Shown: in pieces, positions 15,575 through 54,377 of the stretch
Layout of the letters: each line of letters begins with the position of its first letter
Numbering within the stretch: the first letter of the stretch is position 1
Assembly (NCBI GenBank): GCA_963641945.1
Contig: CAVIDW010000004.1
Span: 2,462-66,461 of the forward strand
Source of the DNA: a bacterium
Lineage (GTDB): Bacteria > Bacillota_I > Bacilli_A > RF39 > UBA660
DNA: 64,000 nucleotides
Direction: 5' to 3'
Position numbers and translations under genes: made by a program
The notes under the pieces: model-generated
Database searches by the model: none
Seen by the model: the letters and a program-made list of their open reading frames with translations, nothing else
What the model was told of the DNA's origin: nothing

Positions 15575-15883
15575 TTAACTTAATTCTTTAAGTTTACCAG
15601 AATACTTAGTATACGATTTAGTTATTTTATTTTCTTCTTCAGGAGTTAGTGTATACCATCCTTTATAAAACATTAAATTAAATATATCTCGAGCCATATC
15701 TTTAGTTTCTTCAAAAATATTTATAATATTTTTATATAAATATTTATTACTCATTTCATTTATTGCAACACTATAACTATTAGATATACTCTTTTCACAT
15801 AACATTATGTCATTTAATAAATCTTCATCATTCAAGTATTCATCTCTATTAATTACTTCTTTTTCATTTTTTATTTCTTTCAT
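15575..15883 (-). CDS. CotF-family spore coat protein
   Basis: 102 aa. LLNDIMLCEKSISNSYSVAINEMSNKYLY...ARDIFNLMFYKGWY fits the Coat F domain. Confidence 0.65.
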   Translation of the reverse strand: MKEIKNEKEVINRDEYLNDEDLLNDIMLCEKSISNSYSVAINEMSNKYLYKNIINIFEETKDMARDIFNLMFYKGWYTLTPEEENKITKSYTKYSGKLKELS

Positions 15884-16640: not shown

Positions 16641-16669
16641 AAAAAGTTCACAATCAATGTGAACTTTTA
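16641..16669. terminator. Bidirectional intrinsic terminator between convergent genes
   Basis: agttcaca-atcaa-tgtgaact hairpin flanked by an A-run and a T-run. It sits between hsp20 and the surface-protein gene. Confidence 0.7.
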
Positions 16670-18264
16670 TTATGTTTAAATAAATCTTTTTTTTCACAAA
16701 AAATTCCCAAGAAAAACATTAAAACACAAATAATAGTAAAAATTATATAAATAAAGACATTATTTTTTTCATCTTGTCTTACAACAAGAGCATATGACTT
16801 TACAGTACCATCAGTAGATTTAACATTTACCAAAACAAGTGAATTATTTTTTAATTTATTATTTCCTTCAATTGTAACAATACTATCAGAATCTTCAGGA
16901 ACAGCATTAATTTCAAGAGAAGATTCATCACTACTTAATTCTAAATAATAAAGATTATTATCATTATCAAAACTAATATCATGATTTGAAACACTAAATT
17001 CACTTAAATTAGTATTTGAAGATAAATATTTTTCTACTCTATTAATATTAATTTTATATGTCCTTTCAATTTCATTTTCAGCTAAAACTTTTATTTCAAC
17101 TACATCTATATCTTTGCTTAAATCAATCTCTCTTTCGCCACAACCATTCGCAAAACTTGCTTTTTCACTATTAAGTATAGAACTAATTGTAATTTTATCA
17201 ATTGTTTTTAAGACATAAAGCGTATATTCTAAAACTTCAGAATCAAATTTTTGATTTAATTTACCATCAGAAACAGTTAACGATTTCAAAGTATTATCAG
17301 AATCTCTACCATCACTTCTACTAATAGAAATTTCATAGTTTTTTTTACTTTCATTTTCGGCAGTAACAACAACATTATAAGTATTAGTACCATACTTTAC
17401 CCTAATTTTACCAGTACCACTAACTTTTGCTTTACTATCACTAGCAATAGCATCTATTACTAAAGTATCTTTATCAGTACTAATACTATATTTTGTGTTA
17501 GTGGAAGAAAAGATAGGATACAATGTTTCACCTTCTATAGACAAAAATTTAAGGGTACTATCATTATTTCTATTATCATTTCTTGTAATAATAACCTGAT
17601 AAGTTTTTTTAGAACCATTTTCAGCAGTAACAACAACATTATAAGTATTAGTGCCATACTTAACACTTACTTTTCCAGTTCCACTAACTTTTGCTTTACT
17701 ATCATTAGCAACAGCTTTAATAGTAACAGCAGATTTATCAGTTGTCAAACTAACTTTTCCGTTGCTCATATTGACAGAAGTACCATCAATATTTAAAGAT
17801 TTTAGAGAATTATCAGTTGATGGAACTCTTATACTTAATGATAAAGTATTTGAACTAATATTAACAGAAGCAAAATTACCACTAGAATCTCTTGCAAAAA
17901 CAGGTTTAATAACTGTTATCATTTCATTACTAGAAACACTTTTAGCCTTTATAACAAAATTTTTAACAACTACAAATGAACCAGATTTTGCATTACTTGA
18001 GTCTGTATATAATGAAATTACTCCATTATTAGCACTACCTTGAAAATCATTATTATGTTCAATAGAAACCAAACTCAATGCACTTGATAATTTAATAGTA
18101 CCAGAAACACCTGTAACACCATAATCAGAATTAGCAATAATTTTACATTTAGTAGTTTCATCAACAAGTAAACTAGTTTTTTCACATGAAATTTTCAAAT
18201 TATTTGAAGCATTAACAAATAGCGGAAAAAAACATAATAGCAAAACAAATAACTTATTTTTCAT
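16654..18264 (-). CDS. Membrane-anchored surface protein: signal peptide, cohesin-like N-terminal domain, about 4 cadherin-like beta-sandwich repeats, C-terminal TM anchor
   Basis: 536 aa. Signal peptide MKNKLFVLLLCFFPLFVNA. The first domain (...VTGVSGTIKLSSALSLVSIE...GVISLYTD...) is cohesin-like. The repeats read L(K/S)SL.I.G....(F/M)......Y.......V.I.A...D..AKVSGTG......G.N....VVTAENGS.K.Y.I.I.R. The tail is hydrophobic. Confidence 0.65.
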   Translation of the reverse strand: MKNKLFVLLLCFFPLFVNASNNLKISCEKTSLLVDETTKCKIIANSDYGVTGVSGTIKLSSALSLVSIEHNNDFQGSANNGVISLYTDSSNAKSGSFVVVKNFVIKAKSVSSNEMITVIKPVFARDSSGNFASVNISSNTLSLSIRVPSTDNSLKSLNIDGTSVNMSNGKVSLTTDKSAVTIKAVANDSKAKVSGTGKVSVKYGTNTYNVVVTAENGSKKTYQVIITRNDNRNNDSTLKFLSIEGETLYPIFSSTNTKYSISTDKDTLVIDAIASDSKAKVSGTGKIRVKYGTNTYNVVVTAENESKKNYEISISRSDGRDSDNTLKSLTVSDGKLNQKFDSEVLEYTLYVLKTIDKITISSILNSEKASFANGCGEREIDLSKDIDVVEIKVLAENEIERTYKININRVEKYLSSNTNLSEFSVSNHDISFDNDNNLYYLELSSDESSLEINAVPEDSDSIVTIEGNNKLKNNSLVLVNVKSTDGTVKSYALVVRQDEKNNVFIYIIFTIICVLMFFLGIFCEKKDLFKHNKSSH

Positions 18265-18275
18265 ATTATACCTCC

Positions 18276-20711
18276 TTATATATTATTTCTAAATCGACTA
18301 TATAACATTGATATATCCCCTATATCAAGTCCATCAGTATCATTTACTTCTGCAGACTTTAAATAACAAAAATCTAAATTATTAGTAATTCCTAAAGAAT
18401 TATTTCTAAAAACACTATATGCAGCTGAAACATCACCAATATCTAATACACCATTGCCATTTACATCCCCATAAACAATTAAATAAAAATTATTTTCACC
18501 AATACTATATTTCATACAAGAAGAAATATTGCTACCCCTGTCATCAACTAATTTATCATTTTGATATAAACTAATAGATTGATTACTATCAGACTTAGAC
18601 AATAAATCACTATACATACTTCCAACATTTAGTCCAGAAAGATAATCTTTATCATTATTCTTTAAAATATTAATAGATTGATCAAAATTATAATATGGTA
18701 CAGCAAGTATATTAACATTAATTTCCTTAAAAATTAAGTTATTTTCTAATGATACGATTTTGACTACAGAATTTCCAACTTTTTTTCCATATATTATATC
18801 ATTTACTACATTAATATTATCATTTGATAATTCATATTTAATCATTCTATTACTTGCATTAAATGGAGTCAAATTATATATTTTTTTTAAATCATACTGT
18901 TCATTTTCATATATTGAAATATCTAACTCAGATATACTTATATCTTCAACATAAATATACTCATTTAAGTTAAATTTTATCGTTTTAGTAATATAACCAT
19001 ATTTTACAACTAGATTATATTCTCCACTATATTCTTTATCATTTCTAAAAAAACTAAAACTATTTAACGAATCAACTTTAATAGAAAAATTATTTGTAAC
19101 ATCTACTCCATTTTCATTAGTAATACTTATTTCATAATCACTATTATTAATATTTGAAGTATCTAAATTAACGTTATAAATATCTTTTCCATCAACATAT
19201 AAAATATCTTTTATATCAAAATCATAATCTAAATTATCCGTATATGCTTTTATTGATATTATTACATTTGAATCAGACAAATTATACCACTCTTTACCAT
19301 CTCTAGAAATAAAGCATATTCCTTCATTTAACCTTGTATTTTCATAACCACTTACATCTCCGCTTTGAACTCCCATTGAATATGGAGTATCTCCAGAATA
19401 TTTTACTATTATAGAAAAATCATCACTAACCAATATTGGAGTATCTAATTTAATTGTATAATAACCACCAGAATCAGTACTTCCACTATATATCAATTTT
19501 CTATTATTTAAATCATTACTATCAGAATAATAAACTAAATAGTCAGTTTTACCATCAAAACCAATACTTATTTCCTTTAATATTTGATTATTATCAGACT
19601 TTTTTTTAAATACATTAGCTCCCCACGTTATATTACTATTAGAATAACCATAACTAGTATTATATCCAAGATTATCATAATAATATACATTATCTTCAAT
19701 ATCAAAATCTATATTATCATAAACTGAAAAATTAGTACAAATTCTACTATCCTCATATGATATATAAAAGTATCCATTATCTCTACTAGAAGTACCCCAT
19801 GAATTTTTTATAATAAATGCACCCTTATTTGATGGTGTTATATCACCTCTAAACAAAGATGTATCCACATTATCATCCCATCCAATAATACTAACCGAAT
19901 GATTAGAATACTCAGTCCCATTATAATAATACATATTATTATCACTAAGATATGCATTAGAATCATAATATGAAGCAGAAACAGCTCCATATTGCATAAT
20001 TAACTCTTTTATCTTTTTAATAGACGTTGAATTACATGAATCATAATTATAAAATTTTATATCATTAATATCAACTGCACTTTTTTTATTTAATTCACTT
20101 AAAGATATCTCTTTTAAATGATTGTTTTTAGTTTTAACAGATGAATAATAACTATCAAATGGAAAATCACTTTCTAAAATTAATCCACCATTTCTCATCA
20201 AATATCCAGAAGCATAATATTTATTACCAGCACTATCAACAATTTTATTATTAATTCCATTTTCATTAACACCATCTAAAAAATAATTATATCCTGTAGA
20301 ATAAGCCATATATAATTCAGATAAATCAAATGATTGATTATAGTTCTTTAATATATTTGATTCAATAGAAGACACAATGCTAAATAACCAACATGTACCA
20401 GTTAAACGTTGATTTTTAACATCAGTAACAAATGAATTACCATCAATATCTCTTAAGTCATATTTTTCAGGCAATATATTTTCACTTACAATATCAAAAG
20501 ATTTTAAACTCTTCTTTTTTAATAAATTGTTATATGTGCTATCCTTACAAATTTTTGGCATTATACTATTCTTTTTTTCTTCATTAGATAACATGCTCCA
20601 TTTAATATATTCGTCACTATAAACACACTTACTAGGAATTTCTGAAGCAAAAATAGAGTTAAAATAAATAAAATAAAATAAACAAAATAATAATATGTAT
20701 CTTCTTTTCAT
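18276..20711 (-). CDS. Secreted papain-family (C1) cysteine peptidase with Big_2-like domain and C-terminal dockerin
   Basis: The ATG at 20711 gives the signal peptide MKRRYILLFCLFYF.... Catalytic motifs are NQRLTGTCWLFS (Cys), NHSVSIIGWDD (His) and IIKNSWG. The C-terminus has a duplicated Ca-binding segment, GDVNGNGVLDIGDVSAAYSVF / VNDTDGLDIGDISMLYSRF. Confidence 0.85.
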   Translation of the reverse strand: MKRRYILLFCLFYFIYFNSIFASEIPSKCVYSDEYIKWSMLSNEEKKNSIMPKICKDSTYNNLLKKKSLKSFDIVSENILPEKYDLRDIDGNSFVTDVKNQRLTGTCWLFSIVSSIESNILKNYNQSFDLSELYMAYSTGYNYFLDGVNENGINNKIVDSAGNKYYASGYLMRNGGLILESDFPFDSYYSSVKTKNNHLKEISLSELNKKSAVDINDIKFYNYDSCNSTSIKKIKELIMQYGAVSASYYDSNAYLSDNNMYYYNGTEYSNHSVSIIGWDDNVDTSLFRGDITPSNKGAFIIKNSWGTSSRDNGYFYISYEDSRICTNFSVYDNIDFDIEDNVYYYDNLGYNTSYGYSNSNITWGANVFKKKSDNNQILKEISIGFDGKTDYLVYYSDSNDLNNRKLIYSGSTDSGGYYTIKLDTPILVSDDFSIIVKYSGDTPYSMGVQSGDVSGYENTRLNEGICFISRDGKEWYNLSDSNVIISIKAYTDNLDYDFDIKDILYVDGKDIYNVNLDTSNINNSDYEISITNENGVDVTNNFSIKVDSLNSFSFFRNDKEYSGEYNLVVKYGYITKTIKFNLNEYIYVEDISISELDISIYENEQYDLKKIYNLTPFNASNRMIKYELSNDNINVVNDIIYGKKVGNSVVKIVSLENNLIFKEINVNILAVPYYNFDQSINILKNNDKDYLSGLNVGSMYSDLLSKSDSNQSISLYQNDKLVDDRGSNISSCMKYSIGENNFYLIVYGDVNGNGVLDIGDVSAAYSVFRNNSLGITNNLDFCYLKSAEVNDTDGLDIGDISMLYSRFRNNI

Positions 20712-20815
20712 AACTTCATTTACTACACCTATTATAATAATTATATCAAAAACGCGAATATCAAACAACTAAAAATAATTAAAAAAACAACAAAAACATA
20801 TATCAAAAAAAAAGG

Positions 20816-22576
20816 TTATTTTGACCTGTTAATCCATTTAATTAAATCATTTATATTTATTTTATATAAAATACCTTTCACATTTTCGAAACCAATATGT
20901 TTAAACACTAATTGAGATTTTTCATTTTTGTAACTTATGGTACCATAAATATCATTATATAAATCTTTATTACTATTATTTACTAATTGTTGAAACATTT
21001 TTCTTAATATATTGTACTTACCTTGATATTCTTTTTTTATCTGTACTTCAGAAAGCATTAAACCATCATCCATATACATATAACATATAAATCCTATAAG
21101 TTCATGATTCATAAAACACAAAAGCATATTATAGCCTTTTGTATTTTTAATCATATTAACCCAAATATCATATGAATTATCAACTGAATCATTAGTATTG
21201 TTTATTAAATTATAATTATCAACTAATATTTGACACATATCTAAAAGAATTTCAGTTTTTGGTAAATTATCTTTATTAAAAAAATCATAGTTAAAATCTT
21301 CTTTAAATTCCGAAATTAAAAGATCACATAACTTGCAATATTCTTTAGGAGCTATTTCATAACTTCCTGTCTCTAATTGAAATTTTCCAGGACAATATCT
21401 ACATAATTTCTTTTTGTAGCAGTCTTTACATTTAGAATTAGTACTAAAATGAAGTTTACATATACCATTTCTAAACATATTTAATGCATCTAAAATCTTA
21501 TACTTTTTTATATTATATTTTTCATCAACAACAAGACATGGTTTTATATTACCATAACAATCTATAAATATACGATCTTTCCCAATTGAACATTGAAAAA
21601 CATTATCATTCATTTCAATATTTTCATTTAAATTATTAACTGCGTTTTTAAAATATTCTATATCATTTTCGTTCTTTTTAATTATTTTCACTATATCCTT
21701 TGATAACAATGTCTCTTCATTTCTTCTAAAAAGTCCTCCAGATACTTTTGGAAAAATATTATAATCATATCTAAATTCTGAATCATATTGCTGACAATAC
21801 TTTCTTATTCTTTCAAAATTATTAACATTTCTTTTTGTTAATACAGTTTTTAATTTCAAATTTATGTTATTACTTATTAAAAGATCTATATTACTATTAA
21901 TTACAGAAAAAGCATTTTTAAAATGAGTAAATTCTTCGTAAGTACGATCATCATATCCATAAATACTAATTTCAATTTGAAATGGTTTATATTCACTAAA
22001 TAACTTAATTATCTCATCATTAATTAAAAATCCATTTGTATTTATCCCAACACGCATTCCTTTTTTCTTTGCATATAAATACATTTTTTTAAAATCTTTA
22101 TTTAATAAAGGTTCTCCACCAGTCAGAATAACAGTATAACAGTTAATTTCAAGTAATTCATCAATTATTCGTTTATAAGATATAAAATCCATATCATTTT
22201 TCTTACTTTTATCAACATAGCAATGATCGCACTTAAATTGACATCGATTTGTTATTTCAATCATACAATTTGTTGCTTCATTTGATTCTAGCAAAACATT
22301 CAAATCACTATAAGTCAATTCTTCTGTTAATATATTTGATTTATCAAGTATATTCAATTCATTAATAAAATCATCATAATCATTCTCTAATATTTTTGTT
22401 TCAACTTTATAATGTTTTTTTAATATTTTAATCGTTTCAGTTTTACCATTATTAATATTATCAATAATTATTTTTCCAACACCATCAAATTTATAAATTA
22501 TATCAGAATCAAATTTGTTTATTAACAAAGTATTATTTTTTGTTCTTTTAATTAAATATTTTTCATCAAAATTCAT
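20816..22576 (-). CDS. Radical SAM/SPASM peptide-modifying enzyme with N-terminal PqqD-like RRE and C-terminal GNAT-like domain
   Basis: The likely start is the ATG at 22576, because the track start at 22609 lies inside the upstream hairpin. The RRE-like region reads FDGVGKIIIDNINNGKTETIKILKKHYKV...DYDDFINEL. The radical SAM cluster motif is CQFKCDHC. The SPASM-type Cys cluster reads CSIGKDRIFIDCYGNIKPC...CKDCYKKKLCRYCPG. The tail (ELIGFICYMY...SEVQIKKEYQGKYNILRKMFQQL) is GNAT motif A-like. Confidence 0.8.
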   Translation of the reverse strand: MNFDEKYLIKRTKNNTLLINKFDSDIIYKFDGVGKIIIDNINNGKTETIKILKKHYKVETKILENDYDDFINELNILDKSNILTEELTYSDLNVLLESNEATNCMIEITNRCQFKCDHCYVDKSKKNDMDFISYKRIIDELLEINCYTVILTGGEPLLNKDFKKMYLYAKKKGMRVGINTNGFLINDEIIKLFSEYKPFQIEISIYGYDDRTYEEFTHFKNAFSVINSNIDLLISNNINLKLKTVLTKRNVNNFERIRKYCQQYDSEFRYDYNIFPKVSGGLFRRNEETLLSKDIVKIIKKNENDIEYFKNAVNNLNENIEMNDNVFQCSIGKDRIFIDCYGNIKPCLVVDEKYNIKKYKILDALNMFRNGICKLHFSTNSKCKDCYKKKLCRYCPGKFQLETGSYEIAPKEYCKLCDLLISEFKEDFNYDFFNKDNLPKTEILLDMCQILVDNYNLINNTNDSVDNSYDIWVNMIKNTKGYNMLLCFMNHELIGFICYMYMDDGLMLSEVQIKKEYQGKYNILRKMFQQLVNNSNKDLYNDIYGTISYKNEKSQLVFKHIGFENVKGILYKININDLIKWINRSK

Positions 22577-22594
22577 AGTTTCACCAAACATCAT

Positions 22595-22629
22595 TATAAA
22601 AAAGAACATATTTTAAATATGTTCTTTTA
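22595..22629 (-). terminator. AU-rich hairpin plus U-run between the small ORF and the radical SAM gene (partial terminator/attenuator)
   Basis: aaaagaacatat-ttaaa-atatgttctttt is a perfect palindrome, followed on the minus strand by further T residues. It begins at the stop codon of the small ORF. Confidence 0.6.
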
Positions 22630-22859
22630 GCATCCATCACCTTCATTTCCTGTATAACTTTGTTGCCAACATCCCATATATATTTTCTTTGATGGTTTTA
22701 GTATTTGAACTCTTTTAGTTGTTGGTTTTTCATATTGAAACTCCTCTTCAATATAATTAGGCTTAAGTGCCAAACTTCCTTGAACATATACCAAAATTTC
22801 TACAACATTTTTTTCTTTAAGTAATGCTTCTTTATTGACTTAAAATTTTCTATGCTCAT
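22627..22859 (-). CDS. Candidate RiPP precursor peptide gene (start unresolved; apparent 1-nt frame discontinuity)
   Basis: A 70-codon stop-to-stop open frame (22839-22627) ends ...KPSKKIYMGCWQQSYTGNEGDGC*. It has no in-frame ATG or GTG before the internal Met at 22677; only the TTG at 22794 is available. An RBS-preceded ATG at 22859 and a GAGGAG-preceded ATG at 22733 are each one nucleotide out of frame. Confidence 0.4.
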
Positions 22860-22884
22860 TATATAAATGTTTCCTTTCAAACAC

Positions 22885-22913
22885 ATATTATCATACTTTA
22901 ATTTTAAAGTCAA
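22885..22913 (-). promoter_or_regulatory. SigA-type promoter for the small ORF / radical SAM operon
   Basis: On the minus strand: TTGACT (22913-22908), a 17-nt spacer, then an extended -10 TGaTAATAT (TAATAT at 22890-22885). Confidence 0.6.
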
Positions 22914-22931
22914 ATTAGATATACATCATTA

Positions 22932-24038
22932 TTATTTAGTAACATTAAATCTAAATAAGCAAATATCTCCATCTTGCATTACATAATCTTTACCCTCAAG
23001 TCTTGCTCTACCTGCTTCTTTAACTTTAACTTCACTTCCATATTGAATTAAATCATCATAACTCATAACTTCAGCTTTAATAAATCCTCTTTCAAAATCA
23101 GTATGAATCAATCCCGCACATTCTGGAGCTTTCATTCCATCTTTAAAAGTCCAAGCACGAACTTCGTCTTTACCAACAGTAAAGAAAGTTTTAAGTCCAA
23201 GTAAATGATATGTATTATGAATAAGTTGATCTAATCCACTATTAGCAATACCCAAATCAGCTAAAAATTCTTTTTTACTTTCTTCATCTAATTCAGATAA
23301 TTCGCTTTCAATCTTAGCACACATTAGTACTACAGAAGACTTTTCACGAGCTGCATACTCACGAACACTATTAACATATTTATTATCATTTGAAAGTAAA
23401 TCATCTTCACTTACATTAGCTAAATAAATAAAAGGTTTATTAGTAATTAAATTATATGTTTTAATTAATTTTGATTCTTTTTCATCAAATTCTTCTAATC
23501 TAAGCATTCTTCCTTCACTTAAAATACTTTGAAGTTTTTTAAGTAGTGCAACTTCATATAAGCCTTCTTTATCATTAGATGTAGTAGCTTTCTTTTCAAT
23601 TCTAGAAAGTCTACCTTCAACTATTTCTAAATCACTTAATATTAATTCATAATTAACAATTTCTATATCTCTTGTTGGATCAATGTTTCCTTCTACATGA
23701 ATAATATCTTTATTTTCAAAACATCTAACAACTTGAACAATAGCATCTACTTCACGAATATTGGCCAAAAACTTATTTCCAAGACCTTCTCCAGTAGATG
23801 CACCTTTTACAAGACCAGCTATATCAATAAATTCATATTGAGTAGCAATAACTCTTTCTGATTTATACATTTCATCTAATGTTTCAAGTCTTTTATCTGG
23901 AACAGTAACAACTCCAACATTAGGATCAATAGTCGCAAAAGGATAATTTGCAGCTAAAATATTCTTTTTGGTAATTGCATTAAACAATGTACTTTTACCT
24001 ACATTGGGTAAACCTATAATTCCAGCCTTAAGCGCCAT
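22932..24038 (-). CDS. ychF: Ribosome-binding ATPase YchF
   Basis: [26 protein letters not shown], and a C-terminal TGS/YchF domain (...[30 protein letters not shown]). The start at MALKAG is preferred. Confidence 0.95.
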
Positions 24039-25557
24039 AAACAACACCAGGCATTGAACCTATCCCAATTGGGACTCCTAATAAATACCAACCAACAATT
24101 ACTCCAACCCAAATAATAGTTATAAATGTTGAATATGGTACCATATATTTTATACTTCCGAACAAAGTAACCATCTCCCCTTTATTGTATTTTTCCATAA
24201 AAGCAATATAAATTACAAAATATGCTAATAACGGAGTCAATCCATTTGTTATTGAATCAGCAGCAGTATATATTACTTGTGAAAATTCAGGACTAATACT
24301 TGCATTCATAAGTAATGGTACAATACTACCTGATAAAATTAACCATTTAGTTTCTGAAATAGGACAAAACAAATTAACTAAAGCAACAAATAATATAACA
24401 GCTAATATAAGCCCAATTCCATTAAATCCTAATCCACCAATTACATTAGAAGTAAATGCAGTAATTACTTCACCAATCTTACTCTCTTCAAAAACATTAA
24501 TAAATAATGATGCAAAGAAAATAAGAACAATTATACTACCTATTCCATCTAAAGAATAACCAAGTGACTCAGCAATATCTTTATTATTTCTAATAGATTT
24601 AGTCATAAAACCATAACCAAGTCCAATAATTATAAAAAATAATGTAGCAATAAATATAAATCCTTTATTAAATAAAGAATTTGCTCCAAATAACATATCT
24701 ATATATCTTGTAGCGTTAGAATCTAATAAACCACCACTAAGTGGTAAACCAGGTATAATCATATAAACTATAATTAATAAATAAATAAAACCTGCTCCAA
24801 GTCCTATAATTAATCCTCTTAATTCTTTATTTGTTATTTTAATTTCTTCTTCCAAAGTTTCATACCTTGGTAATTTAGGCATAATCTTTTTCTCTGTTAA
24901 TTGTGTAAATACCAAAGAAACTAATATCAACACGAAAATCATAATATATAATGAAAAAAATATACCAATTTTATAATTAGGATCAATTATTTTAGCTGCA
25001 CTTAAAGTTATAGACAACAAACTACTATCATTAGCACTTAAGAATATATTAATTCCACTACCAAATGACAATGATGCAAACGAAGCAACTATTCCACCTA
25101 AAGGATTTCTTCTACCATATTTAAATAGCAAAGCACCAATAGGTAACATAATAACATAACCAATATCACCTAATAGTGAAAACAATAAACACATAAATAC
25201 CAATATAAATGTTATTGTATTTTTTTTAGAATTTCTAGTTAATAGTGTAAAGAATGATTTCATAAATCCACTCTTTTCAAGTACACCAATACCTATCAAA
25301 ACTATAATCAATGTAGATAATGGAGCAAAATTAACAAATCCACTTACCGCAGTACTTACAATATGTTTAATACCACTTATACTAAATAAATTTTTAACTT
25401 CTACAACATTATTTACCAAATCACCAGTAACTTTACTTACTGCAGCATATTCTGCTTGAACATTCAATAAATGCAAAAATCCACTTAAAAGTATAGTAAT
25501 AAAAGTTAAAATAATAAATGTCATAATAGGACTTAATTTTATTTTCTTCTTAAACAT
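24028..25557 (-). CDS. AbgT-family transporter (p-aminobenzoyl-glutamate transporter family)
   Basis: 509 aa and polytopic. NFAPLSTLIIVLIGIGVLEKSGF matches the conserved AbgT N-terminal motif. Confidence 0.75.
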   Translation of the reverse strand: MFKKKIKLSPIMTFIILTFITILLSGFLHLLNVQAEYAAVSKVTGDLVNNVVEVKNLFSISGIKHIVSTAVSGFVNFAPLSTLIIVLIGIGVLEKSGFMKSFFTLLTRNSKKNTITFILVFMCLLFSLLGDIGYVIMLPIGALLFKYGRRNPLGGIVASFASLSFGSGINIFLSANDSSLLSITLSAAKIIDPNYKIGIFFSLYIMIFVLILVSLVFTQLTEKKIMPKLPRYETLEEEIKITNKELRGLIIGLGAGFIYLLIIVYMIIPGLPLSGGLLDSNATRYIDMLFGANSLFNKGFIFIATLFFIIIGLGYGFMTKSIRNNKDIAESLGYSLDGIGSIIVLIFFASLFINVFEESKIGEVITAFTSNVIGGLGFNGIGLILAVILFVALVNLFCPISETKWLILSGSIVPLLMNASISPEFSQVIYTAADSITNGLTPLLAYFVIYIAFMEKYNKGEMVTLFGSIKYMVPYSTFITIIWVGVIVGWYLLGVPIGIGSMPGVVYGA

Positions 25558-25743: not shown

Positions 25744-26646
25744 TTAATCTACTTTCACTTCTATTTTTAGAACATCAAGAATTCTTTCTAAATCTCTTTC
25801 ACTATTAAAAGGAATAACAATTTTTTTATTTTTAATTCTTACTCTATTTCCTATAGTATCAGTTAATGCATCTTCTACATAACCAAATGGATTAGGCTCT
25901 TTTATTCTAACAATAGCTTTTTTTCTTTTATAATCAGGATTATTAGCAATACTTTCTAATTCACGTACTGATATATGATCATTTTTAATCTTTTCTACTA
26001 ATTCTTTTATTAATTCTTCATCTTGTAACTTACTTAAAACTTTAGCATGACCCATGCTTATATAGCCATGAAGAATTTCATACTTAACACTCTCTGGTAA
26101 AGTTAAAAGTCCTAACATATTAGTAACATAACTTCTGCTCTTACCAATCTTTTTAGCCAATTCCTCTTGAGTAATATTTAAAGCTTTAATTAAATTATTA
26201 TAAGCTTCAGCTTCTTCTATAGCACTTAAATTCTCTCTTTGAATATTTTCAAGTAATGCTATTTGCATCATCTCTTCATCACTAAAATCTTTGATAATAG
26301 CTGGAATAGTTTCAATGCCAACTAATTCACATGCTTTAGTTCTACGTTCTCCAGCAACTATTTCATATCCCTTAATACTTTTAGTAACAATAATTGGTTC
26401 TAAAACACCAAACTCTTTAATAGAATTAGCAAGTTCAACAAGCTTTTCTTGATCAAATGTTTGTCTTGGTTGATAAGGATTACTTCTAAGTTCACTAACC
26501 TTTACTTCAACAATATCCTCTTTAGGAGTATTTTCAGCTATTTCATCTAATGTTTCAAGCGGATTTACATACAATGATTCATTACTAAATAATTGTTCTA
26601 ATCCTTTTCCTAAAGCTTTTCTTTTATTTGTTTCCATTTCTTTCAA
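25744..26646 (-). CDS. parB: Chromosome partitioning protein ParB/Spo0J
   Basis: ParB box GERRTKACELVG, the HTH region QEELAKKIGKSRSYVTNMLGLL, and 300 aa. Confidence 0.9.
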   Translation of the reverse strand: MKEMETNKRKALGKGLEQLFSNESLYVNPLETLDEIAENTPKEDIVEVKVSELRSNPYQPRQTFDQEKLVELANSIKEFGVLEPIIVTKSIKGYEIVAGERRTKACELVGIETIPAIIKDFSDEEMMQIALLENIQRENLSAIEEAEAYNNLIKALNITQEELAKKIGKSRSYVTNMLGLLTLPESVKYEILHGYISMGHAKVLSKLQDEELIKELVEKIKNDHISVRELESIANNPDYKRKKAIVRIKEPNPFGYVEDALTDTIGNRVRIKNKKIVIPFNSERDLERILDVLKIEVKVD

Positions 26647-27412
26647 TCACCTCTTTGGCTAAATTCAAATAAGCTAAAGCACCTTTACTTTTTGGATCAT
26701 ATTCTATAATTGGTTTTCCATGTGATGGAGCCTCAACTAATTTAACAAGTCTAGGAATAATAGTACTAAACACTTTTTCATTAAAGAACTTTCTAACATC
26801 TTCTACAACTTCAAGTCCAAGTAATGTTCTACCATCTAACATTGTTAGTAAAACACCTTCTATATCTAAATTAGAATTAACTTTTTGTTGAACTCTCAAA
26901 ATAGTATGTAATAATTGATTAACACCTTCTAAACTATAATATTCACATTGAATTGGTATTAAAACAGAATCTGATGCTGCTAAAGCATTAGTTGTTAAAA
27001 TTCCCAAGTTAGGAGGACAATCTATAATTATATAGTCATATCTATCTCTAATAGTCGCAAGTTGTTTTTTTAATTGTTCAGTAATAATAAAATCCTTATC
27101 TTGTACGCTTATTTGAATAAGTTCAATATCTACACCAGCTAAATCTATCATAGCTGGAATAACACTTAAATTCTTAAATGGAGTTTTGATAATAGTATCT
27201 TTAATATCACACTCACCCATAATTACATTATAAACACTCTTCTTAATCTTTGATCTATTTATACCAAGACCAGTAGTGCTATTACTTTGTGGATCTAAGT
27301 CAATTAGTAAAACTTTCTTACCTAAATGTCCTAAAGAACTAGATAAATTTATACTAGTTGTTGTCTTGCCTACTCCACCTTTTTGATTTACTAATGATAT
27401 AATCTTTCCCAC
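26624..27412 (-). CDS. parA: Chromosome partitioning ATPase ParA/Soj
   Basis: Deviant Walker A NQKGGVGKTTT and IIIDCPPNLG. 262 aa. It overlaps parB. Confidence 0.9.
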   Translation of the reverse strand: MGKIISLVNQKGGVGKTTTSINLSSSLGHLGKKVLLIDLDPQSNSTTGLGINRSKIKKSVYNVIMGECDIKDTIIKTPFKNLSVIPAMIDLAGVDIELIQISVQDKDFIITEQLKKQLATIRDRYDYIIIDCPPNLGILTTNALAASDSVLIPIQCEYYSLEGVNQLLHTILRVQQKVNSNLDIEGVLLTMLDGRTLLGLEVVEDVRKFFNEKVFSTIIPRLVKLVEAPSHGKPIIEYDPKSKGALAYLNLAKEVIERNGNK

Positions 27413-54302: not shown

Positions 54303-54377
54303 TGGCAGGGGTAGAAGGACTCGAACCCTCCCCAACGGTTTTGGAGACCGGCATGCTACCACTGACACCATACCCCT
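54303..54377 (-). tRNA. tRNA-Trp (anticodon CCA), CCA encoded
   Basis: The reverse complement folds as a cloverleaf. The acceptor stem is AGGGGTA/TACCCCT and the anticodon loop is CTCCAAA. The T arm is GAGGG-TTCGAGT-CCTTC and the 3' end is GCCA. Confidence 0.9.

Follow-up and report, generated by a model that had tools for sequence, protein, structure and literature searches.

A probable new RiPP-type cassette coupling a small Cys-Trp/Tyr peptide to an RRE–radical SAM/SPASM–GNAT enzyme in uncultured gut bacteria

Layout of the peptide and maturase cassette

We analyzed a 64,000-nucleotide stretch of contig CAVIDW010000004.1 (assembly GCA_963641945.1; hereafter the window), in which a first-pass annotation made from the letters had proposed an operon for a peptide that is synthesized ribosomally and modified post-translationally (RiPP). 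The minus strand of this stretch carries a self-contained two-gene cassette, in which a small peptide gene is followed by a gene for a fused enzyme with a peptide-binding RiPP recognition element (RRE), a radical S-adenosylmethionine (SAM)/SPASM unit, and an acetyltransferase domain of the Gcn5-related N-acetyltransferase (GNAT) type. It is probably a compact RiPP-type peptide-modification cassette of a family for which we found no description, and our verdict is that this family is a genuine new one of RiPP type, a radical SAM/SPASM maturation variant with an obligatory GNAT. The module, its co-inheritance, its regulatory frame, and its invariant residues are directly supported by the comparisons described below. 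The elements follow one another on the minus strand in the order ychF, promoter, ATG at 22859, precursor frame, hairpin, ribosome-binding site (RBS), and an open reading frame (ORF) of 586 amino acids (aa).

22885..22913, minus strand: sigma-A type promoter with −35 TTGACT, a 17-nt spacer, and extended −10 TG-a-TAATAT (basis: positional conservation in related loci)
22837..22859, minus strand: ancestral precursor start, ATG at 22859 (MSIENFKS...), not in frame with the remainder of the gene (comparison with relatives)
22831..22836, minus strand: A7 run with a substitution and a 1-nt deletion, CAATAAAG in the window versus CAAAAAAAG in locus L013 (DNA alignment)
22627..22839, minus strand: precursor open frame, 70 codons plus stop, ending KKIYMGCWQQSYTGNEGDGC / ILKPSKKIYMGCWQQSYTGNEGDGC (stop-to-stop frame)
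22630..22674, minus strand: core peptide GCWQQSYTGNEGDGC, with a Cys-Trp pair, a C-terminal Cys, Asn at −5, and Asp at −2
22595..22628 (stem 22600-22628), minus strand: perfect 13-bp AT-rich hairpin overlapping the precursor stop, then a U-run (folding free energy −12 kcal/mol, z −2.6)
20816..22576, minus strand: trifunctional maturase gene (RRE, radical SAM/SPASM, and GNAT), 586 aa, start MNFDEKY, with a GGTGA RBS 6 nt upstream
22322..22576, minus strand: PqqD-like RRE, residues 1-85, three strands and three helices (secondary structure of the model, PqqD scores)
21707..22279, minus strand: radical SAM core, residues ~100-290, C112-x3-C116-x2-C119 (PF04055, E value 1.2e-22)
21302..21604, minus strand: SPASM domain, residues ~325-425, with C329, C347, C383, C386, C392, C395, and C414 (invariant Cys, fold matches)
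20819..21301, minus strand: GNAT acyltransferase domain, residues 426-586 (PF13673, fold, family alignment)

Promoter-like matches occurred at chance level in this 25% GC DNA (26 found versus 25.7 expected). The promoter that the first-pass annotation had placed right after ychF was present, and its position is conserved: a TTGAC-N16-18-TAxxxT pattern ending 10 to 35 nt 5′ of the peptide start was detected in 18 of 22 related loci, versus only 0.7% of 80-nt windows drawn at random from these loci. The palindromic hairpin with a U-run, also proposed at that stage, proved to have a 13-bp stem and an equivalent in most relatives, as the 44 nt 3′ of the peptide stop folded better than shuffled sequence at z < −2 in 19 of 22 loci (median z −3.6); the stems themselves are unrelated in sequence between loci. 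A terminator scan missed the window hairpin because its stem has fewer than three G-C pairs. The hairpin, which stands between the precursor and enzyme genes, is probably a partial terminator (attenuator). In the mechanism that we propose, the dedicated strong promoter, as judged by its positional conservation, would transcribe the small precursor gene, and the terminator-like hairpin after the precursor stop would let part of the transcripts reach the enzyme gene. Such a layout, in which a strong promoter drives a short precursor gene and a leaky terminator precedes the enzyme gene, is typical of RiPP operons and should yield the precursor in excess over the enzyme.

The precursor peptide family and the copy in the window

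A protein search with the enzyme retrieved about 40 close relatives. In nearly every locus, a small ORF with the same C-terminal core adjoins the enzyme directly upstream, an association that the first-pass annotation had anticipated for the homologues. All 43 distinct cores contain a Cys followed by Trp or Tyr (33 Trp and 10 Tyr) and a C-terminal Cys, and most have Asp at −2 (38 of 43) and Asn at −5 (37 of 43), so that the usual core end is N-x-x-D-x-C-COOH. The two core cysteines are separated by 8 to 13 residues that vary in length and sequence among the 43 cores; the residue ahead of the first one is usually Gly, and also Ser, Asn, or Leu; and core length ranges from 11 to 16 residues. Long-leader precursors of 60 to 90 aa, with the motifs G-N/S-L-A-L-K and Y-E-K-P-K-x-K-K-L, occur in Bacilli, and the window leader carries GSLALK and YEKPTTKRVQILKP. 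Precursors from Christensenellales have short leaders of ~12 to 17 residues.

A profile search for the peptide returned 52 proteins, all unnamed, and an exhaustive HMMER scan of 1.84 billion representatives yielded only ~40 peptide clusters (at 50% identity). When the look-up was reversed, starting from three peptides on long contigs, the RRE, radical SAM, and GNAT genes followed each time. The precursors of L014 and L001 differ by 11 synonymous versus 2 non-synonymous changes in 24 codons, and since such close relatives differ mostly by synonymous codons, the precursor frame is under purifying selection at the protein level. The claim that the small upstream frame would be conserved in related genomes thus held, with many synonymous changes. 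The alternative that the small ORF arose by chance, with some other substrate for the enzyme, was refuted by these analyses and is vanishingly improbable; the peptide matches no Pfam or NCBIfam model, as a chance frame would, but the peptide family is kept across two bacterial classes next to the enzyme in nearly all loci, codon differences between L014 and L001 are mainly silent, and the ORF has its own promoter and terminator.

Variations on this arrangement were seen at a few places. In L019, from a metagenome-assembled genome (MAG) of Bacilli, the precursor (2101-2304) lies downstream of the GNAT gene as an open frame without an ATG. In L018, from an Erysipelotrichaceae MAG, the leader (2784-2914) has an in-frame TAA after 12 codons and is without the GNLALK motif, and the core, hairpin, and enzymes are intact despite this stop. 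Met almost always stands immediately before G-C-W in Group A cores, and for this reason an internal start that would give a leaderless 16-mer in L018 is conceivable. Two further small frames were rejected as chance: a GCW...C ORF at the Latescibacterota locus L032, which runs antisense to a DegT-like gene, and an 11-codon ORF (MKNQQLKEFKY) with a GAGGAG RBS inside the window precursor gene, the GAGGAG site of which is not kept in L013 (GAAGAAGAA).

The 70-codon frame described in the first-pass annotation is present and conserved, but its natural ATG at 22859 lies out of frame because of a 1-nt deletion. Comparison with L013, the nearest relative (enzyme 94% identical, ychF 99.7%), placed this deletion in the A7 run, where it separates the conserved ATG and its RBS from the frame of the leader and core. 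The sole in-frame start is a TTG at 22794, which would give 55 aa and has no recognizable RBS. An uninterrupted 77-aa ORF with the same first eight residues is found in L013 and in the closest peptides of the database, P0107 and P0108. The exact window enzyme, whether taken as 597 or 586 aa, was found on no other contig on record, and the frameshift therefore could not be cross-checked. The window copy of the precursor is possibly impaired, unless a base was miscalled.

It is possible, although somewhat doubtful, that the cassette is decaying in this genome, with the frameshift having inactivated the precursor so that nothing is made here while the family functions elsewhere. The displaced ATG and RBS and the TTG start without a recognizable RBS are what decay would leave behind, and signs of decay exist elsewhere in the family, namely the leader stop in L018 and remnants consisting of a SPASM tail and GNAT in L033-L036. 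Against this, the enzyme gene is intact over 586 aa, and the core, hairpin, and promoter are the same as in L013. The lesion lies within a homopolymer, where sequencing and assembly errors classically arise, and a second A7 run ~25 nt downstream (GAAAAAAAT, ~22804-22812) could, speculatively, restore the core frame by a −1 slip.

The maturase, its acetyltransferase domain and gene arrangements

The ORF of about 586 residues to which the first-pass annotation had assigned RRE, radical SAM, and SPASM regions was supported by its fold, its Cys motifs, and stand-alone orthologues. PF04055 (Radical_SAM) matched at 81.3 bits versus a cut-off of 29.5, with CQFKCDHC at residues 112-119. Domain-model searches of the kind suggested earlier gave a divided result: PF04055 and PF13673 passed on the window protein, whereas Pfam SPASM (12 bits, cut-off 21.5) and PqqD (17.8-22.1 bits, cut-off 23.4) fell below their cut-offs. 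The stand-alone RRE orthologues of L011, L021, and L029 clear the PqqD cut-off, with 25.5, 30.1, and 27.3 bits, respectively. The SPASM cysteines are laid out as C329-x12-G-x4-C347...C383-x2-C386-x5-C392-x2-C395...C414, in which the last spacing is x2 versus x3 in the motif CX9-15GX4C...CX2CX5CX3C...C. Exactly ten cysteines are invariant in 55 enzymes, three in the CX3CX2C motif and seven in SPASM; no conserved eighth SPASM Cys was found in these 55 enzymes, a non-Cys ligand still being possible from sequence.

An AlphaFold model of the full enzyme, built with 19 homologues, had a mean predicted local distance difference test (pLDDT) score of 91 and a predicted template modeling (pTM) score of 0.79, and consisted of an N-terminal three-strand/three-helix module followed by a partial TIM barrel, then a Cys-rich extension, and finally an alpha/beta domain. 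Foldseek against the PDB ranked CteB (1e-16), SuiB (1e-15; template modeling (TM) score 0.58-0.60), SkfB, and anSME at the top, in alignments of 370 to 460 columns that span the RRE, radical SAM, and SPASM regions, and a sequence profile search of the PDB gave SkfB as the best match for the radical SAM part (5e-17). Because of this fold, the structural matches to CteB, SuiB, and SkfB, and the stand-alone orthologues that pass the PqqD model, together with the Cys motif, the RRE and SPASM domains are real. By homology and fold, the PqqD-like RRE would bind the leader through the motifs G-N/S-L-A-L-K and Y-E-K-P-K-x-K-K-L, the radical SAM domain would abstract a hydrogen atom from the core, and SPASM would hold two auxiliary Fe-S clusters.

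NCBIfam models gave 50 partial matches to the enzyme, and the statements made here rest on the best 25 of these 50. They include AhbD, NirJ, MftC, StsB, WgkB, AlbA, SkfB, and PqqE, all far below their cut-offs, so that no equivalog was obtained among the best 25: StsB scored 59.8 bits versus 625, AlbA 54.6 versus 850, SkfB 52.7 versus 300, WgkB 57.7 versus 650, MftC 72.8 versus 265, and PqqE 49.5 versus 381. Weak matches that cover only the SPASM part were given by PapB (13.3 bits) and CcpM (16.7 bits).

The C-terminal region is a GNAT domain, as the first-pass annotation had read it, and not an unrelated fold. PF13673 scored 26.5-29.1 bits versus a cut-off of 23.6 and matched 8 of 13 family members (best E value 2.4e-10). 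The domain modeled alone reached a pLDDT of 93.7, and all of its top Foldseek matches in the PDB were GNAT N-acetyltransferases (TM ~0.7), including NatD at the second rank, RimI, Naa60, and PaiA. NatD (4ua3) was also the best PDB match by sequence profile (1e-7), and RimI was the best partial NCBIfam match for this domain. W472, E510 (in SEVQ), N551, S554, and Y571 are invariant in the family and H560 is nearly so; E510 sits in strand 4, N551 and S554 in motif B, and Y571 toward the C terminus. The pyrophosphate loop of motif A reads Q518-G-K-Y-N-I in the window, where just the Q of Q/R-x-x-G-x-G/A is kept, and QGDGKT and KNKGIL in L021 and L018, respectively. In the model, GNAT follows the SPASM helix directly, with no low-confidence linker between them. 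A GNAT profile search of 5.8 billion proteins gave 20 matches only, all unnamed stand-alone GNATs of 87 to 211 aa (some truncated); the clade is specific to this system.

The GNAT domain is predicted to move an acetyl or acyl group from acyl-coenzyme A (CoA) to the peptide. Because its nearest solved relatives include the N-alpha-acetyltransferases NatD/Naa40 and RimI, the leading candidate acceptor would be the new core N terminus once the leader is off, and such N-alpha-acetylation would require a prior cut by an unlinked protease; alternatively, the acceptor may be a group formed in the radical step. It is quite improbable that GNAT does not act on the precursor at all and serves instead for self-protection, by acetylating the mature product as in MccE and microcin C, or in a structural or docking role. 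This explanation would fit the degenerate acetyl-CoA pyrophosphate loop of the window clade and a leader-attached core devoid of a conserved Lys or free amine. However, E510, N551/S554, and Y571 fall where catalytic or CoA-binding residues are expected in GNATs, the loop of other clades is closer to the canonical one, the domain abuts the SPASM helix, and protection would still mean an active acetyltransferase that acts on the product.

Beyond what the first-pass annotation had described, the fusion is one of four gene arrangements of the same module. A fused RRE-radical SAM-GNAT enzyme is encoded in the window, L001-L007, L012-L016, and L022-L027; an RRE-radical SAM enzyme with a separate GNAT of 155-160 aa in L008, L018, L019, and L039; three separate genes (an 85-aa PqqD, a 350-aa radical SAM enzyme, and a GNAT of 161-173 aa) in L011, L029, L038, and L041; and a separate RRE with a radical SAM-GNAT fusion in L021. 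A GNAT gene of its own, encoding 155-173 aa, is thus found in L008, L011, L018, L019, L029, L038, L039, and L041. This pattern of fusion and fission is, by Rosetta-stone reasoning, strong evidence that the RRE, radical SAM/SPASM, and GNAT units work together. The hosts are all low-GC uncultured gut or rumen MAGs, labeled Bacilli, Mycoplasmatota, Erysipelotrichaceae, ‘Clostridium sp. CAG:762’, and Christensenellales.

Shortened and distant relatives of the enzyme were also observed. Clostridia MAGs carry genes for 221-260 aa (L033:2863-3645, L034:3007-3672, L035:2959-3696, and L036:2959-3672) that keep only the last SPASM cysteines (CxxCx5CRYC) and GNAT; that of L033 also retains an RRE-like N-terminal start, with the radical SAM core deleted. 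Either these genes are remnants of decay or their GNAT has become independent. The most distant radical SAM relatives (~28% identity; Latescibacterota and Gemmatimonadota) reside in a different cassette (L032:1924-4782), which comprises a PqqD protein (67.7 bits), a 421-aa radical SAM/SPASM protein sharing FRYDYILFP, a small ORF, and a 353-aa protein; our guess is that the last of these is HprK-like.

Candidate chemistry, known systems and genomic setting

The proposed product would contain at least one intramolecular crosslink that involves the Cys-Trp/Tyr pair and the C-terminal N-x-x-D-x-Cys. We tentatively prefer a thioether formed from a Cys sulfur, as in sactipeptides and ranthipeptides, because both cysteines are invariant, because SPASM has no eighth conserved Cys, as in AlbA and CteB, and because the nearest solved relatives by sequence and fold are thioether synthases. 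AlbA and CteB have seven cysteines or an open auxiliary cluster I (Aux I) site, while anSME, SuiB, and PqqE are fully ligated, the auxiliary clusters of SuiB with an extra linker Cys (PMC6231123). In CteB and PapB, direct ligation has been probed with selenocysteine-substituted peptides (PMC10177961). A thioether crosslink combined with acetylation would be our best guess for the chemistry.

Several points weigh against this assignment. No NCBIfam equivalog cut-off is reached, and the assignment to thioether synthases thus rests on weak similarity. SuiB, which forms a Lys-Trp carbon-carbon (C-C) bond, is nearly as good a structural match as CteB, and Trp and Tyr replacing each other at an invariant position suit an aromatic C-C crosslink just as well. 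Nor does the lack of an eighth Cys prove an open iron site, since PqqE uses an Asp ligand. On the acetylation side, the GNAT loop is degenerate in the window clade (QGKYNI), and the core offers no conserved amine as long as the leader is attached. Finally, neither a protease nor an exporter is conserved among the related loci, and the precursor gene of the window is frameshifted.

The main rival, which we consider rather unlikely, assumes the same cassette with a C-C crosslink of cyclophane type from an aliphatic carbon to the Trp/Tyr ring, modeled on streptide, triceptides, ryptides, and WprB, and assigns the cysteines to a disulfide, metal binding, or recognition. An aromatic position that admits only Trp (33) or Tyr (10) is typical of aromatic crosslinks, and SuiB is among the best structural matches (1e-15; TM 0.58-0.60). 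However, the cores have no conserved Lys or Arg donor and no three-residue motif after the aromatic residue, where positions +1 to +3 vary, and both cysteines are as invariant as the aromatic residue itself. The extra linker Cys of SuiB (PMC6231123) is also absent from this family.

Less probable than either of these is an aryl thioether that joins a Cys to the adjacent or distal Trp/Tyr ring, made anaerobically, with GNAT acting on a group created in the radical step and not on an ordinary N terminus; the product would then be a ribosomal peptide, or a molecule derived from one, of a new class. Such a linkage would account for three observations: only Trp or Tyr is found next to the invariant Cys, the C-terminal Cys does not vary, and GNAT and the radical SAM enzyme are inseparable. 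It would be a radical SAM route to crosslinks of the tryptathionine, cysteine tryptophylquinone (CTQ), and Cys-Tyr types, which are otherwise made with oxygen or copper.

Slightly further down in probability, and improbable overall, the peptide could, instead of being a secreted natural product, be consumed as the scaffold of a small molecule or cofactor that stays inside the cell, as in pyrroloquinoline quinone (PQQ) or mycofactocin biosynthesis; the C-terminal Cys and/or Cys-Trp would supply the product, and GNAT would acetylate the excised amine. This would accord with the lack of a conserved transporter, protease, or immunity gene across the related loci, with the location of the cassette amid housekeeping genes in several genomes, with a C-terminal residue as invariant as in scaffolds of the MftA and PqqA type, and with MftC and PqqE among the partial NCBIfam matches. 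However, the scores of these two models are far under their cut-offs (72.8 versus 265 and 49.5 versus 381), no redox partner enzymes are linked, and core length and sequence vary between the invariant residues, which is more typical of bioactive peptides. The family is also rare and patchy (~40 clusters in 1.84 billion representatives), unlike an essential cofactor pathway.

Returning to the preferred thioether, the cassette resembles CteB/thermocellin, AlbA/subtilosin, SkfB, PapB/freyrasin, and NxxcB in combining an RRE, radical SAM, and SPASM (or twitch) domains, and sactipeptide and ranthipeptide systems in having a Cys-containing core next to the enzyme gene and a hairpin between the precursor and enzyme genes. 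Its SPASM domain, like that of AlbA and CteB, has seven cysteines without an eighth (PMC6231123). Unlike sactipeptide and ranthipeptide maturases, the enzyme reaches no equivalog model (AlbA, SkfB, StsB, PapB, or CcpM), and its core has two conserved cysteines only, one of them C-terminal, plus an invariant Trp/Tyr. The cassette differs further in its obligatory GNAT and in the absence of a linked transporter or protease, and its crosslink is a prediction from sequence. We know of no GNAT partner reported for the sactipeptide or ranthipeptide classes.

Other characterized systems share parts of this design. StrB/SuiB, WgkB, RrrB, WprB, and the three-residue cyclophane-forming enzymes (3-CyFEs) of triceptides are RRE-radical SAM-SPASM enzymes that act on short cores with an essential Trp/Tyr, as in the cassette. 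Unlike streptide-type systems, its cores have no KxxxW, WGK, RRR, or aromatic-X-X motif, no streptide model was found among the best 25 of 50 NCBIfam matches, and the likeness to SuiB is one of fold only; SuiB has an extra Aux I ligand that the cassette enzyme is without. Rgg/SHP quorum sensing and transporters accompany the streptococcal systems, whereas the cassette has no such link. SCIFF of Clostridia resembles it in having a minimal precursor and a radical SAM/SPASM enzyme without a transporter or protease, and both are widespread in anaerobic Firmicutes, where they lie amid housekeeping genes. Unlike SCIFF, with six cysteines and no GNAT, the cassette has two cysteines, a different precursor family, and a GNAT partner, and its enzyme is not the SCIFF maturase by NCBIfam.

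The GNAT fold is common to the cassette, the acyltransferases of microviridin (MdnD), goadsporin (GodH), selidamides, and lipolasso peptides, and NatD/Naa40 and RimI, and the strand-4 Glu and motif B conserved in RiPP-tailoring GNATs and N-alpha-acetyltransferases are conserved in the cassette GNAT as well. Unlike these enzymes, it is a fusion partner or strict companion of a radical SAM enzyme, forms a small clade of its own, and has a CoA-binding loop that is degenerate in part of the family. PqqA/PqqD/PqqE and MftA/MftB/MftC likewise consist of a small peptide, a PqqD-family chaperone, and a radical SAM/SPASM enzyme, with an invariant residue at or near the C terminus and no exporter. In contrast to PQQ and mycofactocin loci, the linked peptidase and redox genes are absent here, the cores are variable, and the equivalog scores are far too low; cassette precursors end in D-x-C, where a mycofactocin or PQQ assignment looks for a Val-Tyr end or Glu-x3-Tyr.

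The generic features of an RRE-dependent radical SAM/SPASM RiPP system are all present, namely CX3CX2C, a seven-Cys SPASM, a PqqD-like RRE, and an adjacent precursor, and the enzyme does not belong to the sactipeptide, ranthipeptide, streptide, mycofactocin, or PQQ equivalogs. The first-pass annotation could place the fusion and core in no named RiPP class, and the same was found here, as NCBIfam has no match to the peptide and no equivalog for the enzyme, our literature search found no published description of this cassette, and the combination of an obligatory GNAT, a C-[WY]...N-x-x-D-x-C-COOH core, and a minimal cassette is in none of the curated Pfam/NCBIfam models matched.

No current source of new peptide chemistry is richer than the RRE-containing radical SAM/SPASM enzymes. 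As far as we found, three features of this family are unreported together: an obligatory GNAT partner, evidenced by fusion and fission over two bacterial classes; a very short Cys-Trp/Tyr...Cys core; and a minimal, self-promoted unit of two to four genes without an exporter or protease. Since the family occurs only in uncultured low-GC gut and rumen bacteria, human Hadza metagenomes included, its product is out of reach by culturing, but it could be reached by expressing two small genes in Escherichia coli. For engineering, a single fused 586-aa enzyme able to bind, crosslink, and acylate a peptide would be a handy tool. Should the crosslink be an ordinary thioether accompanied by N-acetylation, the family would be a solid new RiPP subfamily; if aromatic ring and sulfur are joined, it would represent new enzymology.

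The genes that flank the cassette in the window are the following.

22932-24047, minus strand: ychF, the gene 5′ of the cassette promoter
18276-20768, minus strand: C1 peptidase of the papain family, with a lectin-like domain and an N terminus resembling a signal peptide, directly 3′ of the cassette, probably secreted
16654-18264, minus strand: cadherin-like beta-sandwich protein, large, 3′ of the cassette, probably secreted

The adjacency of the C1 peptidase and cadherin-like genes to the cassette is not conserved in relatives, which places both outside it. As a candidate leader protease, the C1 peptidase was rejected, since it is missing within 3 kb downstream in L013-L016 and missing from all other loci. 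The ABC transporters found near L039 and L040 are not conserved elsewhere and were rejected as exporters. There was no transporter gene in the window operon, as noted in the first-pass annotation, and none conserved across the related loci, nor was a protease, immunity, or regulator gene conserved near the cassette in these loci. The upstream neighborhood of the window cassette is parA-parB-AbgT-ychF, and L013-L016 have the same AbgT-ychF synteny; flanking genes are otherwise unrelated between loci. The composition of the window (~25% GC) is unbroken across the cassette.

Cassettes of similar divergence (enzyme identity 73-74%) occupy different sites: that of L001 lies between gyrA/GT2 and asnS, and those of the window and L013-L016 lie after AbgT-ychF. 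No mobile-element genes flank the cassettes in this comparison. Because similarly diverged cassettes are found at different chromosomal sites, the cassette relocates as a block. In the window, parA/parB (25744-27412), AbgT, and ychF just upstream suggest an origin-proximal chromosomal location. The same 25% GC genome encodes a protein with a spore-coat-F domain (15575-15883, minus strand), and a tRNA-Trp(CCA) at 54303-54377 fits the standard genetic code.

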